From a virus, in the IMG/VR virus record IMGVR_UViG_3300033072_000982: a DNA stretch of 11,434 bases. One strand, given 5' to 3'. The notes below the pieces were generated by a model that did not search any database, had not been told where the DNA came from, and worked only from the letters and a program-made list of their open reading frames with translations. Shown in pieces: positions 1,020 through 7,448 of the stretch (the stretch's first letter is position 1; each line of letters begins with the position of its first letter). Both the position numbers and the translations under genes were made by a program.

Positions 1020-1361
1020 TTATAAGTTATATTTTTTTGCATTTAATATTATTTCTAAATCTTCTTTATTTTCTGAATATTCTAAAATATCATAACGGGA
1101 AAACCATATAATATTTTTACCTTTTATTTCATCTGTAGCAAAAAAATGCATTATATTATCAGGAACATTATCATAGTGAATGGCGTATGGAAAATCAACA
1201 TTACTAAGATGTTTTACATATTGACCAATATTGTTGCTTATAAATTTTTTTAATTTATTAACATTTTCTACACCAGAAGCATAGCCACTAGATTCTTGAC
1301 AAATTACATAACTTCCAATCCTTAATCTATTTACATTTTCGTATTTTTTTATATATTTCAT
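1020..1361 (-). CDS. Cassette-family protein (113 aa), MKYIKKYEN...NAKKYNL; body unrecognised
   Basis: Track ORF. Canonical ATGA overlap junction at 1358-1361 (AAATATAATTTATGAAATATA). Confidence 0.7.
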   Translation of the reverse strand: MKYIKKYENVNRLRIGSYVICQESSGYASGVENVNKLKKFISNNIGQYVKHLSNVDFPYAIHYDNVPDNIMHFFATDEIKGKNIIWFSRYDILEYSENKEDLEIILNAKKYNL

Positions 1362-1894
1362 AAATTATATTTATTAATATTTTTTTTCATTAAATAATAA
1401 TCATATTGTTTTGGTGCTTCATTTTTAAGAAAATCTAATATTTTTTTCTTTAATGTTTTTGTTAATCTATCACTTTCATCTAATAAATCATAAAAATCAT
1501 ATTTCCAATCTTCACCTTTATCAACAAATATACTTGTATCTGCGCCTGCTTTTATAAGCATCTTAAACATAGCAAAATATTTATCATCACTTTTCTTTCT
1601 AAAATTATAAATAGAATTAGTTAATACTGTATCACCATCTTTATTTCGTAAATTAACATTATATCCATGATCTATAAATAATTTAACAATTTCTAAATTA
1701 ATACCTGTTGTATAAGATTGTGTAGCAATAATTGTTTGTAGATCATCAAGAAAATCCGGCATATAACCGCTATCTAATAATCCTTTTACAATACTTACTT
1801 CATCATTTTCAATAGCCAAATTCATTAGTTTTTCCTTTTGAGTATTATTCAAATCTAATGTCACCAAATCTTCAAATGTTTTAAGATATTTCAT
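1358..1894 (-). CDS. Cassette-family protein (178 aa) with ankyrin-like repeats
   Basis: MKYLKTFED...NINKYNL. The body contains ankyrin-like segments (DHGYNVNLRNKDGDTVLTNSIY...MLIKAGADTSIFVDKGEDW). The start overlaps the upstream TAA as TAATG. Confidence 0.78.
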   Translation of the reverse strand: MKYLKTFEDLVTLDLNNTQKEKLMNLAIENDEVSIVKGLLDSGYMPDFLDDLQTIIATQSYTTGINLEIVKLFIDHGYNVNLRNKDGDTVLTNSIYNFRKKSDDKYFAMFKMLIKAGADTSIFVDKGEDWKYDFYDLLDESDRLTKTLKKKILDFLKNEAPKQYDYYLMKKNINKYNL

Positions 1895-3210
1895 TATAAA
1901 CCATATTTTTCTGTATTTTCACCAAAAATAAACTTTTCATAAGCTTCCAAATCAGCTTTAGTTCCATTTTTGAGAATATATTTTTCAAATTCACTAGTTT
2001 TTAACCATTTTAATATATCACCATTAATAATTTTAGCAAGTTCAAATAAATTACCTTCTTTATCATTATAATTTATATAGATTTTATACCAATAACTAAA
2101 TAATGTATATTCAATATTATTTTTAAATAATTCTAAATTATCAACTTGAATTAATTTTGGAAATATATCATCTGGACTATCTAAATATTTTTCTACTACA
2201 TTTTCAACTTCTCTATTTAAATCTTTATATCCATTTTTTATATAATCTTCTAATCCTTCATATTCTATATCATATGAAAAATCATTCTGAACATTTTCTA
2301 AAAATTCTGAAATACTTTTAATTTCTTGTAGATTATGTTTTTTAATATATTTTATAATATCTTCATAATCAAAATATAATTCAATATCAAATTTTTCTTT
2401 ATTTGAATAACTTATTTCAAAAGGAATTGTTTTTAATTCATCTTTTATACTTGCTTTTAATGCTTGTTCTTTTTCAGATGATATTTCATCTTTAAAATCT
2501 GTTAATTCTCTTTTTAAACCTAATTTTATGAAAAATTCATGAATCACACCTATATCAATATCACCATATTTATCATATTTTAATTCATATTTTAGTAATT
2601 TTGCTAATGCTTCTATTTTTTTAATATTTTCATAACTTAAATATCTATCAAGATAATCTAATTCACTATCATCTATATAATATTCATAATTACTATAATA
2701 ATTTGTAATGTTTAACATCCAATTTATTACACCATCATTTATATTCATTAAATTTTCTAATTCATCTGATTTCATAAATATAGTTAATGAATCAGATTTA
2801 TAAATTTCATCTTCACTTTGCCATCTATCAGATTTAACTTGATAATCATTTTCATCTATACCAATATAGTTTTGAATATCTTTTGGATCAAAATCTGATT
2901 CTAAAAATGTTAATAAGTTTTTTTCATTTTCTTCATTACTTTCTGTAACAGAGTTTCTTAAATATTCTTGTTGTTTTAATTTTTGATATTGTAAATCTTT
3001 AAGCTTTTGAATTTTATCATTTTTATCATTATTCATTTTAGCATGTTTATTAACATTCTTATTCTTAGGATCATCTAATCTTTTTCTAAGACTTTTAATT
3101 CCCCTTTGTAAAAATTGAATACTCTTATCAATATTCTTTTTTACTTTAAAAGGTTTTGCCGAATTTACTTTAATTGGCTTAAAATTATCATATTGCTTAA
3201 TATATTTCAT
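1894..3210 (-). CDS. Cassette-family protein (438 aa), acidic/low-complexity, probable fusion of two cassettes
   Basis: MKYIKQYDNF...TEKYGL. Very D/E/K/Y rich. An internal relic of the family start motif sits at plus coordinates 2335-2357 (TTATAAAATATATTAAAAAACAT versus canonical TTATGAAATATATTAAAAAATAT), encoding ..DIIKYIKKHNL.. Confidence 0.72.
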   Translation of the reverse strand: MKYIKQYDNFKPIKVNSAKPFKVKKNIDKSIQFLQRGIKSLRKRLDDPKNKNVNKHAKMNNDKNDKIQKLKDLQYQKLKQQEYLRNSVTESNEENEKNLLTFLESDFDPKDIQNYIGIDENDYQVKSDRWQSEDEIYKSDSLTIFMKSDELENLMNINDGVINWMLNITNYYSNYEYYIDDSELDYLDRYLSYENIKKIEALAKLLKYELKYDKYGDIDIGVIHEFFIKLGLKRELTDFKDEISSEKEQALKASIKDELKTIPFEISYSNKEKFDIELYFDYEDIIKYIKKHNLQEIKSISEFLENVQNDFSYDIEYEGLEDYIKNGYKDLNREVENVVEKYLDSPDDIFPKLIQVDNLELFKNNIEYTLFSYWYKIYINYNDKEGNLFELAKIINGDILKWLKTSEFEKYILKNGTKADLEAYEKFIFGENTEKYGL

Positions 3211-3219
3211 TTTTTACTG

Positions 3220-3786
3220 TTATAAATTATATTTTTCAGCATTTTTCTTAGCTTCATATCCTTTTGGATCTAATTTCCACTCATTATATTCTTCTAAATT
3301 ATCATATATTAAACGATTATTTTTACAATATAATTGTCTTAATTTTGGTAATTTTGGTAATTCAGTTAATTGATTATTAGAACAAATTAATCCTTTTAAT
3401 GTTTTTGGTAATTCTGGTAAATTACTTAATTGATTATTAGAACATTCTAATTCTTTTAATGTCTTTGGTAATTCTGGTAAATTACTTAATTGATTATTAT
3501 AACATTCTAATTCTTTTAATGTCTTTGGTAATTCTGGTAAATTACTTAATTGATTATTAGGACAATGTAATTTAATTAATGATTCTGGTAATTTAGGTAA
3601 CTCAGTTAATTGATTACCATGACAAGATAAGATTTCTAAATTAATATACTCACTTAAATCTGGTAATTTAGTTAAATTCTGATTAGAGAAATTCAAGTCA
3701 GTGATTTTTGATTTATCGTTTACTTCTTTTGACGATTCGATTCGGTTTACGCCCTTTATTTCCTCGTATGTTTTAATATATTTCAT
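3220..3786 (-). CDS. Cassette-family protein (188 aa) with bacterial YopM/IpaH-type 20-residue leucine-rich repeats
   Basis: MKYIKTYEE...AEKYNL. Body has about 6 tandem 20-aa LRRs (LSNLPELPKTLKELECSNNQ), encoded by 60-bp DNA repeats. Start is in a canonical ATGA junction. Confidence 0.85.
   Translation of the reverse strand: MKYIKTYEEIKGVNRIESSKEVNDKSKITDLNFSNQNLTKLPDLSEYINLEILSCHGNQLTELPKLPESLIKLHCPNNQLSNLPELPKTLKELECYNNQLSNLPELPKTLKELECSNNQLSNLPELPKTLKGLICSNNQLTELPKLPKLRQLYCKNNRLIYDNLEEYNEWKLDPKGYEAKKNAEKYNL
3301..3660. repeat. 60-bp tandem repeat array (about 6 units) encoding the LRR units
   Basis: Units align exactly with the 60-column sequence lines. Units 3421-3480 and 3481-3540 differ at 1 nt; 3361-3420 and 3541-3600 are close copies; outer units are more diverged. 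Confidence 0.85.
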
Positions 3787-3800
3787 AAATTATATTTTTT
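3777..3800 (-). promoter_or_regulatory. Canonical inter-cassette junction motif AAAAAATATAATTTATGAAATAT (stop/start ATGA overlap)
   Basis: Encodes the ..KKYNL tail of the upstream gene, a TGA stop, and the ATG-AAA-TAT of the downstream gene in one 23-mer. Near-identical copies occur at about 4232-4257 and 1353-1373. Variants with 2-12 nt insertions occur at about 377-403, 736-758, 1008-1037, 1884-1908 and 3202-3236. Confidence 0.45.
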
Positions 3801-4241
3801 CGCATTTTTCCAATCTAAATAGTTTTCATATTTATCTGGATAATCTTCAATAACTATTTCTAAATATTGATCATCTAATTGATTAATAAAATCTTCATCA
3901 TCAATATTATTTATATTCCAATTTGCGCCAGATTCAATTAAAAATTGAATCATATTAAAATTATTAGATTGAGCTGCTATCATTAAAGATGTATTACCAT
4001 TACCATCTGGATAATTAATATTAGCACCTTCTTTTAATAATTTTTTTGCATGATCTAATCTATCATAATATGCAGCAGCAGTTAGTGGTGTGAAATTATT
4101 ATCATCAACAAAATTTAAACTATAGCCACTATTTAAAAAATTAATAAGTATTTTATTAAACATTTGTTCTGCAAATACTATGGCAGACATTAACTTATAT
4201 CGCATTTTTTGTTTGCTTTCAAAATATTTTAAATATTTCAT
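3783..4241 (-). CDS. Cassette-family protein (152 aa) with two ankyrin repeats
   Basis: MKYLKYFES...NAKKYNL. Ankyrin signatures present (FTPLTAAAYYDRLDHAKKLLKEGANINYPDGNGNTSLMIAAQSNNFNMIQFLIESGANWN). ATGA junctions at both ends. Confidence 0.85.
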   Translation of the reverse strand: MKYLKYFESKQKMRYKLMSAIVFAEQMFNKILINFLNSGYSLNFVDDNNFTPLTAAAYYDRLDHAKKLLKEGANINYPDGNGNTSLMIAAQSNNFNMIQFLIESGANWNINNIDDEDFINQLDDQYLEIVIEDYPDKYENYLDWKNAKKYNL

Positions 4242-4257
4242 AAATTATATTTTTTTG
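4232..4257 (-). promoter_or_regulatory. Canonical inter-cassette junction motif (copy)
   Basis: GGCAAAAAAATATAATTTATGAAATATTT on the minus strand, the same stop/start architecture as 3777-3800. Confidence 0.45.
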
Positions 4258-5275
4258 CCATTATAACTTCTGGATAATTCTTTTCAATCCAATCTTTTAC
4301 AATATTTATAAATTTAAATTTTTTCAATGATAAATCATAAAAATTTTCATTATCATTATTAGTATGAAATATATTAGCTCCCGCTTTAATTAATTCTTTT
4401 AACATTTTTAATCTACCTTCTTTTGCAGCAAGTAAAAGTGCAGTATTACCATTAATATCAGTTTCTTCTAAATTATATTTATTACTATTTAACAATTTTA
4501 AAAAATGTGAATAATTGACATTTACAATATCAGACATCAATTCATTCCAGTCATTTTTAGCATTAATTATATCTTGTTTAAGTGAATTTGTTATTCTACC
4601 ACCATTAAATAATTCAGTAAGAACTTTTTCTTTATTTGTTATTTTAGATAATTCTTTCTTTACATCTGCATAATTTTCTGATCCAATTTCAACAACTTCA
4701 ATATGTGGGTATTTATTTTTCACTATTTCTTTAATTTTTTTATTATTGTAATAATCTTTCTTTAAAATAATTCTTTTAACATATTTACTGACATCTAATT
4801 TATCAGTAAGTATTAATTCTTCTGCTATACCAAAATCCATAGCACTTTTATCGGTTTTTACTCTCCATAATAATTTACCAACGTTTTTATCTTTTGACCT
4901 TAATTGATTTTGGAATCTACCTAATTTAGTTTTCGCTGGCTTACCTTCAAAATCCAAATAAAAATCAGGATTTTCAGAAAAAGGTATAATTCTATACTTA
5001 TCAGATATCTTTTCAACATCTAATTCTAATGCTGGTAATCCTAAATAATTTAAATTTCTAGTTGCTGAAATTGTTTTAAATTTAGTATCATTTTCTTTCC
5101 AATGTGGTAAAACAGATTTTCTTAATGCAGTATTCCAAAATTTGCAATCATCATTATCACCACCACCACATTTTATATAACCATCTTTTAATATGCTTTC
5201 TAAAGATGATGTTTTATGAAACAATTGATAGTTTCCTTTTCTTTCAAAAATTTTGTATGTTTGTAAATATTTCAT
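4238..5275 (-). CDS. Cassette-family protein (345 aa): unrecognised N-terminal domain plus C-terminal ankyrin repeat; probable fusion of two cassettes
   Basis: MKYLQTYKIFE...MAKKYNL. An internal ..NSNKYNL-EETDINGNTALLLAAKEG.. is encoded by AAATATAATTTAGAAGAAAC (plus 4462-4482), a degenerate copy of the junction AAATATAATTTATGAAATAT. First gene of the minus-strand array; its upstream region is the 5276-5514 intergenic hub. Confidence 0.8.
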   Translation of the reverse strand: MKYLQTYKIFERKGNYQLFHKTSSLESILKDGYIKCGGGDNDDCKFWNTALRKSVLPHWKENDTKFKTISATRNLNYLGLPALELDVEKISDKYRIIPFSENPDFYLDFEGKPAKTKLGRFQNQLRSKDKNVGKLLWRVKTDKSAMDFGIAEELILTDKLDVSKYVKRIILKKDYYNNKKIKEIVKNKYPHIEVVEIGSENYADVKKELSKITNKEKVLTELFNGGRITNSLKQDIINAKNDWNELMSDIVNVNYSHFLKLLNSNKYNLEETDINGNTALLLAAKEGRLKMLKELIKAGANIFHTNNDNENFYDLSLKKFKFINIVKDWIEKNYPEVIMAKKYNL

Positions 5276-5514
5276 AGTTCTATATATAAAAATTGTAAGA
5301 GATATTTTTTTTATTTAAAAAATATTCCTTATCTTTGTTCTATGAAAAAGACAACAAAAACATATACCGAATTGAATGAAATACAGAGATTAAAAATCTC
5401 TAAAGTTTTCATGTATAATAAACTTGATAAGCAAATGCTTAATGAGTGTAAAATTGTATTTGAAGGTGACAAAATGAAATACCTATTTGTTAATGAAATG
5501 ATAATTGATTTGTA
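5276..5514. promoter_or_regulatory. Divergent intergenic hub between the minus-strand and plus-strand arrays (presumed bidirectional promoter region)
   Basis: Only sizeable non-coding gap in the first 7.8 kb. Contains a perfect palindrome AGAGATTAAAAATCTCT (5385-5401) and two plus-strand copies of the family start motif ATGAAATAC (5376 and 5474). The second opens a 13-codon mini-ORF MKYLFVNEMIIDL whose TAA overlaps the 5515 ATG as TAATG. Confidence 0.4.
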
Positions 5515-6138
5515 ATGAAAATAAGACAAGGCTTTGTAAGTAATAGTAGTTCAAGCAGCTTCGTTTTACAAGTTGGAGAAAAATTCTCAACTGTAAAAGA
5601 AGTTGCTCGTTATATTTTAAATACATGTATTTCAGAATGGGGTACAACTGAAAATTTTGAAAAAGAATTAATTGAACTTGATAAAATTAGTTCAGACACA
5701 CCAGTATTTTTCAATACTGGAGGTGATCACACTTATATTCGTAAGATGGATAATAAGTTAGTTATTACAACTTCTCAAAATATTGATCTTCCAGATATTT
5801 CTAACATTAGTTTGAATGATAATGATTTGACTGATGATTTTTATCATCAATTTGATTATATTGATAAATATATGGATCTTGAAGAAGAAATTATAGTTGA
5901 TTCAATTGAAGGATTAGATGGTCAACATAAATTTAATGATTTTTATTCTCTTCAGTATGGATTATATGGTAGACATACATATCTTGATAATATTTGTCCT
6001 ATTTGTAATAAAAGTTTTAGAGCATTTAAATTAAAAAATGGTGATGTTATATGTAATTGTCAACTTGAAAAATATGCTAAGTCTTTACTTAGAAAGAATA
6101 AATTGAAAGAAATAAATGAAAACAATAATAGTAAATAA
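5515..6138 (+). CDS. Hypothetical protein (207 aa), N-terminal MKIRQGFVSNSSSSSF motif and C-terminal Cys4-type zinc-ribbon-like motif (CPICN..x13..CNC)
   Basis: Track ORF. Paralog of the 7030-7446 gene through its first 18 residues; codons differ but amino acids are conserved. C-terminus KEINENNNSK is encoded by the AAATAAATGAAAACA junction that contains the next gene's ATG. Confidence 0.75.
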   Translation: MKIRQGFVSNSSSSSFVLQVGEKFSTVKEVARYILNTCISEWGTTENFEKELIELDKISSDTPVFFNTGGDHTYIRKMDNKLVITTSQNIDLPDISNISLNDNDLTDDFYHQFDYIDKYMDLEEEIIVDSIEGLDGQHKFNDFYSLQYGLYGRHTYLDNICPICNKSFRAFKLKNGDVICNCQLEKYAKSLLRKNKLKEINENNNSK

Positions 6139-6436
6139 GAGTGATAGAGATAATGTATCTATTAATTTTGCAAACAACAAAAATATTTTTATAACATTTA
6201 GGAACAAAATCTATAATGAATTAAAAATCAATTCAACTTTTGATTTAATAAATGCACATAAATTTACTGATAAATATAATATATTTGAAGGTTGTAAAGT
6301 AATAGATATTTCATTTATTGAAAATACTATACATTCAAATGAACATTTTATACGAGTTAAAACAATTACAGAAAAAGATATTTTAGCAAAAAATAGAAAA
6401 GATAAATTAAATAATATTAATGGAACTATACAATAA
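6116..6436 (+). CDS. Hypothetical protein (106 aa), overlaps upstream gene by 23 nt
   Basis: Track ORF starting MKTIIVNKSD at the TAAATG junction motif. No recognisable domain. Supported mainly by tight operon-like packing. Confidence 0.5.
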   Translation: MKTIIVNKSDRDNVSINFANNKNIFITFRNKIYNELKINSTFDLINAHKFTDKYNIFEGCKVIDISFIENTIHSNEHFIRVKTITEKDILAKNRKDKLNNINGTIQ

Positions 6437-7043
6437 ATATATTAAATTAAATGAATTTAAAACATCTGAAATAGCATTTGTTAATTGTAGTAATACAATA
6501 TTAAAAGTACATGTTTATTTTGTAAAATTATTCAATGGACAATCTGGCTTTTTTACAGACAATTCAGGCGAATTAAAAAGATTAACAACACTTTTTCTTA
6601 AAAAAAGAGCATCTTCCGGTTACCTGACCAATATAACTGAAAATAGAGAAAAATTTTTTTTATCAAATACAGAAAATATTATTCGAGATATTCAACCAAC
6701 TACTCAGCATTATTCTTATATCAAAATTATTGATGATAAACAAAATCCACAATTAAATGATCAAATATTAATATTTAAATATGGAAATCTTATTACTAAT
6801 ATTATAGGTGATTATTTTTCTAATTTAGAAGATGGTGAGTTATTAGAAATAAAGAAAAGTTTTATACTAAAATTAGAAAATAAAGGTGGATTTCCATCAT
6901 ATGATAATAGTCATTTTACAAATAGATACTATCATGTATGTGATTATAATTTAGATTTAAATTCTGAAATTCATTTCAACAATTTTAATTTAAATAAATA
7001 TATTAGAACAGAAAAAATTAAAAAAATAAATGAAAACACGTAA
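6420..7043 (+). CDS. Hypothetical protein (207 aa)
   Basis: Track ORF. Overlaps neighbours by 17 nt and 14 nt. C-terminus KKINENT is encoded by the second copy of the AAATAAATGAAAACA junction. Confidence 0.6.
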   Translation: MELYNKYIKLNEFKTSEIAFVNCSNTILKVHVYFVKLFNGQSGFFTDNSGELKRLTTLFLKKRASSGYLTNITENREKFFLSNTENIIRDIQPTTQHYSYIKIIDDKQNPQLNDQILIFKYGNLITNIIGDYFSNLEDGELLEIKKSFILKLENKGGFPSYDNSHFTNRYYHVCDYNLDLNSEIHFNNFNLNKYIRTEKIKKINENT

Positions 7044-7446
7044 CGGATTTGTAAGCAATTCATCATCAAGTAGTTTTATATTACTAAGAGATATATTATC
7101 TGAAAAACAATTTGATATGATTGTTGATTATGAAGAATGGGTAAAATTTTTCATTGAGCTTGATCAAAAGAAAGGTAGTCCAGAAAAACTAAATGATAGA
7201 TTTTCATATTATGATGATTCTTGGAGAATAGTTGTAAATGATGATTATATCTTTGGTGAAACATCTATGGATAACTTTAGTATGTATGATTATTTTGATT
7301 TTATTGGTGTTGATCAAGATTTTGTATCTTGGGATAATGGTTATAATGATGAACCATATAGTTCTCAGTTAGAATTTATTAAAAAAATGAAAGTCAAAAT
7401 TCGTAAAAATAAAATTGATAAAATTAATAATAATTTGGAGGAATAA
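7030..7446 (+). CDS. Hypothetical protein (138 aa), MKTRNGFVSNSSSSSF N-terminal motif paralog, acidic/aromatic C-terminal half
   Basis: N-terminal 18 aa match the 5515-6138 gene with synonymous codon differences (Ser codons TCA TCA TCA AGT AGT versus AGT AGT TCA AGC AGC; Arg CGT versus AGA). Possible further weak similarity (IELDQ versus IELDK). Confidence 0.7.
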   Translation: MKTRNGFVSNSSSSSFILLRDILSEKQFDMIVDYEEWVKFFIELDQKKGSPEKLNDRFSYYDDSWRIVVNDDYIFGETSMDNFSMYDYFDFIGVDQDFVSWDNGYNDEPYSSQLEFIKKMKVKIRKNKIDKINNNLEE

Positions 7447-7448
7447 TT

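Follow-up and report, generated by a model that had tools for sequence, protein, structure and literature searches.

Domain accretion by the fusion of adjacent genes is known from fusions of the 'Rosetta stone' type. DarT, a DNA ADP-ribosyltransferase, and Tpt1/KptA, an RNA 2'-phosphotransferase, belong to one clade of the ADP-ribosyltransferase fold. In phage T4, the ejected internal proteins have nothing in common but a short capsid targeting sequence at the N-terminus and are otherwise unrelated; Alt, an ADP-ribosyltransferase, undergoes processing at either end (PMC3012670, PMC9026906). T4-type internal proteins are packaged by means of an N-terminal propeptide, which the prohead protease cleaves (PMC9026906). 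We compared with these systems a locus from the IMG/VR virus record IMGVR_UViG_3300033072_000982; the window referred to throughout is the whole stretch of DNA that was analysed, 11,434 nucleotides.

The GC content of the window is 19-30%, and 19-23% over a minus-strand array of eight genes. Each array gene begins with MKY[IL]K.[YF]E, with variants that include MKH- and another residue in place of the E, and seven of the eight end in KYNL, the eighth in KYGL. Stop codon and next ATG frequently overlap as TTATGA, and a canonical 20-nt junction, AAATATAATTTATGAAATAT, is present without mismatch at three gene boundaries (1353-1372, 3778-3797 and 4233-4252). The features needed below are as follows.

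384-743, 744-1016, 1020-1361 and 1358-1894, minus strand: array genes, from the ORF list.
1894-3210, 3220-3786, 3783-4241 and 4238-5275, minus strand: array genes, continued, from the ORF list.
4238-5275, minus strand: 345-aa gene, an ORF and the first gene of the array, with a predicted ADP-ribosyltransferase-fold domain and an ankyrin module.
4640-5275, minus strand: conserved N-terminal domain of this gene (residues 1-212), predicted DarT/Tpt1-like ADP-ribosyltransferase fold.
4610-4633, minus strand: putative fusion seam, codons 215-222 (KEKVLTE/L), from alignments, decay of DNA homology and low pLDDT.
4238-4612, minus strand: module derived from an ankyrin cassette (residues 222-345), without the MKYIKTY head and with the KKYNL tail kept.
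4469-4480, minus strand: flagged 12-mer AAATATAATTTA, which codes for K266-Y-N-L269 in an ankyrin inter-repeat loop.
4233-4252, minus strand: genuine array junction at the 3' end of the 345-aa gene, an exact copy of the 20-mer in which the KKYNL stop overlaps the next ATG (TTATGA).
5281-5291, minus strand: TTTTATATATA element, 5 nt upstream of the ATG of the 345-aa gene and the single occurrence in the window.

The surroundings look phage-like, with a gp32-like SSB (phrog_224) at window positions 6420-7043 and, on a syntenic 59-kb contig, GIY-YIG/NUMOD endonucleases, a glucosaminidase and a NUDIX protein. In the syntenic locus L001 an orthologue of the 345-aa gene heads the array and is followed by the orthologue of the 438-aa gene; nucleotide identity to the window is 89% over a gene resembling that of the major vault protein (MVP) and 83% over the head gene. 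This MVP-like gene (~800 aa) lies near the gene for the N-terminal domain in L001 and L014, and a divergent 57-aa gene adjoins such genes in L001, L004, L005, L007 and L014. A motif, TTTTTATATATAA, is conserved 3-6 nt 5' of the ATG of head-of-array genes (L001, L004, L005, L014 and L018) and, with the TTTTATATATA element of the window, may represent a candidate head-of-array promoter giving a near-leaderless mRNA. Searches of a phage collection returned no match for the window DNA (megablast) or for the 345-aa protein, and the exact protein was absent from the records. Scanning GTDB genomes with the family alignment gave no match and hence no clue to the host, and scanning IMG/VR with an alignment of the ankyrin module found no close relatives, only generic ankyrin proteins at 29-39% identity, many of them from giant-virus MAGs. 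Terminator and tRNA scans found none, and a literature search on KYNL, or on MVP, ankyrin and phage together, yielded nothing relevant.

Across nine loci, including the window, L001, L011, L014, L017 and L018, 46 ORFs begin with M[KR][YH][IL]K.[YF]E, and 33 of these end in YN[LI], compared with 3 of 81 other ORFs. The consensus 5' of the head-signature starts is AAAAAAATATAATnT-ATG. The head signature is kept by head-of-array genes with different upstream DNA, and the tail by some genes that come last in their array (L004, L014), so that the start region of a neighbouring gene does not simply account for either end. The array resembles the T4 internal proteins in that a short N-terminal peptide is common to effector-like proteins of diverse kinds (ankyrin, LRR, ADP-ribosyltransferase fold), and in its phage-like context, with the gp32-like SSB in the window and the GIY-YIG/NUMOD endonucleases in relatives. 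It differs in that the array proteins share a C-terminal peptide too; moreover, packaging and cleavage are known for the T4 proteins, whereas the array is known from its sequence pattern, and the likeness is an analogy. The array ends could instead be junction signals acting at the nucleotide level.

The N-terminal part of the 345-aa protein has a predicted structure similar in fold to solved members of the DarT/Tpt1 clade, which suggests that residues 1-221 are a DarT/Tpt1-like ADP-ribosyltransferase-fold domain. R52, S70, R73, E152 and E153 are invariant within it. In contrast to DarT, Tpt1 and KptA themselves, the domain has no match at the sequence level to Pfam or PDB profiles: Pfam assigned no family other than ankyrin to the 345-aa protein at E<=1, thus neither DarT nor PTS_2-RNA, and a profile search of PDB sequences with the N-terminal domain gave nothing relevant. 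Unlike DarT, its gene has no antitoxin-like macrodomain partner seen adjoining it. We collected 44 homologues of the 345-aa protein through this part. The domain also occurs as a free-standing protein (n=23, 203-251 aa), and these short homologues have tails that stop, on alignment, near query residue 224. None of the 23 ends in [KRN]YN[LI], compared with 16 of the 19 homologues that carry a C-terminal extension (at least two of the three exceptions, P0027 and P0032, look truncated), which indicates that a KYNL-type tail arrives together with a captured cassette. The extensions include several mutually dissimilar sequences.

The rest of the protein is ankyrin. Pfam Ank (PF00023) matches residues 275-307 with 29.8 bits against a cut-off of 21.1, Ank_4 (PF13637) residues 261-293 with 28.5 bits against 22.7, and Ank_2 (PF12796) residues 254-310 with 27.3 bits against 27.3; the last two of these matches span KYNL. 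An AlphaFold model of the module (residues 200-345, built with 17 sequences) has a pLDDT of 82.6, with 56-61 for residues 200-229 and ~90-95 around KYNL. It forms a single compact domain of stacked helix-turn-helix repeats that superpose on solved ankyrin proteins, designed and natural, over 87-102 columns, and Foldseek aligned it with the three-repeat protein 3ANK (1n0q_B) at a TM-score of 0.80 over 98 columns. As these superpositions are longer than the 76 residues that follow KYNL, the ankyrin fold must run through the flagged site. In the full-length AlphaFold model KYNL lies in a loop (264-273) between helices 255-263 and 274-285, flanked by the helix pairs 243-252/255-263 and 274-285/289-297, and the sole low-confidence interdomain stretch is residues 213-227 (pLDDT <50). 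Set against the Pfam Ank/Ank_2 consensus LLxxGADVNxxDxxGxTPLHxAA, KYNL follows the second helix of a repeat and precedes the first helix of its successor, standing just before D-I-N-G-N-T-A-L-L-L-A-A, where the relative P0024 has a canonical AGANVN. The family departs from the consensus in a degenerate first repeat, a capping-like helix pair, and the loop of the window protein is, as the alignment reads, longer than that of P0024. The module probably serves the enzyme domain by binding proteins or by targeting it.

Within this loop, the reverse complement of 4461-4480 (AAATATAATTTAGAAGAAAC) codes for K266-Y-N-L269-E-E-T, and its 12-mer AAATATAATTTA reproduces bases 1-12 of the array junction exactly. 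The original prediction had taken this match, which it set a base or two off at 4462-4482, for a fossil junction at which two cassettes of about 269 and 76 residues were fused through loss of the stop and start. The match is indeed there, 12 bases exact, and KYNL does end at residue 269 with 76 residues after it. There are five exact copies of the 12-mer, four of them at gene ends and one at the internal site, against 0.18 expected from dinucleotide shuffles. The eight bases after the 12-mer (GAAGAAAC versus TGAAATAT) agree at 3 of 8 positions, the chance level at 22% GC. When internal KYNL was counted over 118 ORFs (23,684 residues) from seven related loci, amino-acid composition predicted 1.13 occurrences and one was observed, the flagged site itself, so that the single extra copy is not above chance; by arithmetic from the same figure, ~0.17 would be expected in the ~3,450 codons of the window. 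The codons AAA-TAT-AAT-TTA consist of A and T only, the kind that would be expected to be favoured in a 22%-GC genome, and the DNA match therefore probably adds little to the peptide match. Near-copies arise inside genes by chance (KYKL at 507-518, KYNI at 6272 and 8043), and P0043 has an internal DKYNL inside the conserved enzyme-like domain. A TTAAAA-18-TATAAT site overlaps the flagged 12-mer, where a check for a transcript start had been proposed; we rejected an internal promoter, as the region holds 18 such sites and shuffled sequences 16.1±4.3.

Orthologues other than a near-identical copy have different codons at the position, and no homologue ends there. AAA TAT AAT TTA occupies codons 266-269 in the window and in L003, which is 98% identical, and KY is found at this site in these two only. 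The syntenic, uninterrupted 329-aa orthologue of L001 has SDVNLEDTD (GAT GTT AAT TTA), the fused 340-aa orthologue of L004 has IVDLEEEN (ATT GTT GAT TTA), and a more distant ankyrin-bearing relative in L005 has the canonical AGANVN (GCT AAT GTT AAT).

A search with residues 215-345 found 15 free-standing homologues (P0060-P0074) of 127-174 aa, most of 130-141 aa, at 46-72% identity; query coverage is 95% for 13 of them and 69% for P0069 and P0072. Most begin M[KR]Y[IL]KTYE-LFNGGRIT (variants MEYIQTYE and MVYLKTYE; P0069 and P0072 have no head), and all end in KKYNL. In L005, L011, L017 and L018 the ankyrin cassette is an independent gene of an array. With the head, the tail and the array context all present in its free homologues, residues 222-345 have the features of a captured array cassette. 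At the flagged position, about residue 50 of their own sequence, the free cassettes read KNTNLEEAD, KTEDLEYQD or DIVDLEQED (pattern xxNLEE or xxDLEY), and relative to them the window lineage has two extra residues. To judge from these alignments, N-L-E-E is of long standing and conserved in the ~130-aa ankyrin cassette family. K-Y would then be new in the window lineage, by substitution or by a two-codon insertion in A/T-rich sequence, and the coincidence with the junction peptide may be put down to K, Y, N and L being among the commonest residues and to their A/T-only codons. The outcome named beforehand as telling against a fossil junction, an old segment whose junction likeness is coincidental, is thus the one found. 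No free gene corresponds to the proposed 76-aa unit, which would start EETDINGN without a head signature, and its homologues start ~50 residues further upstream; nor does any short homologue of the N-terminal domain end like the proposed 269-aa unit, their tails stopping near residue 224.

P0069 (89 aa) was considered as a short free ankyrin fragment and rejected, being an ORF call made after an in-frame TGA, at a conserved Trp codon, in a full-length cassette of 130 aa. In L031 (570-962) a 130-aa ankyrin cassette is broken by a TGA at a conserved Trp codon (NVWNDF becoming NV-stop-NDF). This TGA could be a nonsense mutation or a sequencing error; local recoding of TGA is less likely. At the array junctions TGA is a stop.

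Each half of the 345-aa gene has free-standing homologues, which supports the general proposal of a fusion, and by alignment the gene appears to unite two array genes in a single reading frame. The join lies elsewhere than had been proposed, at residues 215-222, some 45 codons upstream of KYNL. Homology to genes for the free N-terminal domain stops at E221 and homology to free ankyrin cassettes begins at T220/E221-L222, so that the seam falls within codons 215-222, most likely between E221 and L222. Here the window reads SKITNKEKVLTE-LFNGGRITNSLKQD, and the heads of the free cassettes (MKYIKTYE-LFNGGRIT) align to window residues 214-229, where the window protein has KEKVLTE-LFNGGRIT. The window codons GAA AAA GTT CTT ACT GAA TTA TTT AAT GGT GGT AGA ATA ACA can be compared with those of the free cassette in L011, ATG AAA AAG TTA AAA ACA TAT GAA TTA TTT AAT GGT GGA AGG ATA ACT. 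On the other side, the free gene P0004 of L007, 75% identical in the domain, has KEKV(I/L)(N/T)E in common with the window, and DNA homology between window and L007 decays directly after the GAA of E221. More distant free genes end KEPVLEKRKNI-stop, overlapping the next ATG (L014). The exact point is ambiguous, as KEKVLTE is similar to the N-domain tail KEPVLE but also, if weakly, to the head of a cassette, KYIKTYE. In the window, codons 215-222 retain no trace of a stop or start; the seam of L004 keeps part of a cassette head, LKKVKTFE against MKYIKTFE, with TTA AAA AAA GTA AAA ACA TTT GAA in place of ATG AAA TAT ATT AAA ACA TTT GAA and thus TTA replacing the ATG.

P0004 (L007 3722-4396) ends exactly at the seam position and runs into a convergent epimerase gene, from which it follows that the downstream array of L007 was replaced. 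The L007 breakpoint coincides with the cassette boundary.

We propose that the first partner was a head-of-array gene with the DarT/Tpt1-like ADP-ribosyltransferase fold, which alone would have ended KEPVLEKRKNI-stop, a degenerate tail, and that the second was an ankyrin cassette which alone would have begun MKYIKTYELFNGGRIT. A joining deletion may have taken out everything from the tail through the stop and start to the MKYIK(TY) head. Because the frames at a TTATGA overlap differ by one base, such a deletion must be of 3n+2 bases. Modelled on the L014 junction, removal of 32 nt, plus one codon, would join CTT to ACA in frame, and the product would be KEKVLTE-LFNGGRIT with a flexible linker at the seam. 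Among the loci found, none has a head gene directly followed by a separate ankyrin cassette, and the unfused ancestral state is one that we infer. Like other Rosetta stone fusions, the gene has halves that relatives encode separately, and its seam is a disordered linker with neither stop nor start left. It differs in that its partners come from an array whose members have conserved peptides at head and tail and junctions that overlap as TTATGA, and in that the head gene carries several mutually dissimilar C-terminal extensions across relatives. Taking these data together, we put at about 0.88 the probability that the internal KYNL, in an ankyrin loop, resembles the junction by chance, and that the gene is a fusion with its seam elsewhere.

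A further explanation for the 12-mer is that KY(NL) was copied from a junction by short-tract recombination or template switching, in which case it would be homologous to the junction without ever having been a gene boundary. Copies of the junction are abundant nearby, the window lineage has the two-residue insertion relative to free cassettes, and an exact run of 16 nt, TAATAAATATAATTTA, is common to the internal site and the junction at 1358-1372, upstream of 1358. This run, however, consists of A and T only in a 22%-GC genome, NL was already ancestral so that only ~6 nt would be new, the 3' flank shows no homology, and composition alone predicts one such site; we regard such copying as highly improbable. 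Fission would turn the history round, with the two-domain gene ancestral and both the free N-domain genes and the 130-aa ankyrin cassettes split from it. P0004 resembles a truncation of the fused form exactly at the seam, and loss of the module therefore does occur. Against this, most free ankyrin cassettes carry the MKYIKTYE head of dozens of unrelated cassettes, which is easier lost than created, the ankyrin-fused clade is nested in a tree of mostly free or differently extended N-terminal domains, and the extensions include the mutually dissimilar sequences described above, so we give fission very little weight. A fossil stop/start at 266-269, with 269-aa and 76-aa ankyrin cassettes fused by loss of TGA/ATG, deserves next to no credence, for although the 12-nt match is exact, the array uses the same motif at real boundaries and the gene does encode a two-module protein, no homologue has its end where residue 269 lies, the site is spanned without a break by the ankyrin fold and by the free cassettes, KY is absent from all orthologues except the 98%-identical copy, direct reading finds no trace of a MKYIKTYE head after KYNL in any frame, and stop loss alone cannot fuse genes that are in different frames.

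The fusion favoured here, with its seam at codons 215-222, may not be the only one of its kind. The N-terminal domains of the window protein, P0002, P0003 and P0004 group as one clade, 72-79% identical, and ankyrin modules within this clade are only 51-54% identical to each other, whereas fused modules match particular free cassettes at 64-66% (window with P0062, P0003 with P0070). The seams also differ among the fused members. Although the trees, built by neighbour joining on short sequences, are weak, these comparisons point to independent fusions, or to replacement of the cassette after fusion. The C-terminal extension of P0029, used as a query for a second captured cassette, found no match, and with the P0009 and P0029 extensions as queries BLASTP gave none among the small cassettes of the window either. 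Recurrent capture of cassettes is suggested by the tail statistics and by the ankyrin case.

A broader reading would treat the array as a set of host-directed effector cassettes (ankyrin, LRR, ADP-ribosyltransferase fold and proteins of no assigned type) whose ends are functional or serve shuffling, with a head gene that repeatedly captures its neighbour; as a whole this is tentative and rather unlikely. By analogy with the T4 internal proteins and Alt, the MKYIKTYE head and the KKYNL tail would be functional peptides, such as capsid-targeting or processing signals; they could equally form a ~40-nt junction module that drives the shuffling of cassettes. Time and again, the enzyme gene at the head would acquire the cassette that follows it, and with it a new targeting domain, and if so, the dissimilar extensions, nearly all of which end in KYNL, would be a record of capture in which the window fusion is one instance.

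For the history of the locus, the result removes a false 'fossil junction': the internal KYNL carries no information on how the array evolved, and codons 215-222 are the place to seek the fusion mechanism. What remains is one dated case of gene fusion, from a phage-like group that is very AT-rich and uncharacterised, in which an enzyme-like head gene acquired an ankyrin module from the cassette pool. The KYNL finding itself is ordinary and the surrounding cassette array is more interesting, being a tractable case for the recombination of effector and targeting domains in phages.

Several other features of the locus were observed. The plus-strand gene at window positions 8599-11016 encodes an 805-aa protein with Vault_3, MVP_shoulder and Band_7/SPFH domains; this MVP-like gene is the best-conserved gene of the locus, with versions of 802-805 aa in L001 and L014, and major-vault-protein domains are unusual in a phage-like element. 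L003 has a 1.29-kb insertion (1580-2866, corresponding to about window 5310) that encodes a 403-aa OrfB_IS605/TnpB protein and lies 35 nt upstream of the head gene ATG; it lacks window 6330-8475. The LRR cassette (3220-3786, minus strand) contains a 60-nt tandem repeat at 3343-3616, with 4.6 copies at 88% identity, which encodes near-identical LRR units of 20 residues (NQLSNLPELPKTLKELEC) and suggests a recent expansion. Outside the array, the plus-strand gene at 7947-8486 bears the head signature MKHIKTFENL with a junction-like sequence upstream (AAATATATTATATG), ends in DLESE and has an internal KYNI at 8043-8054. Finally, the paralogous proteins encoded at 5515-6138 and 7030-7446 (plus strand) and at L011 1575-1967 have the N-terminus MK[IT]R.GFVSNSSSSSF in common and belong to phrog_7397, a family of unknown function.
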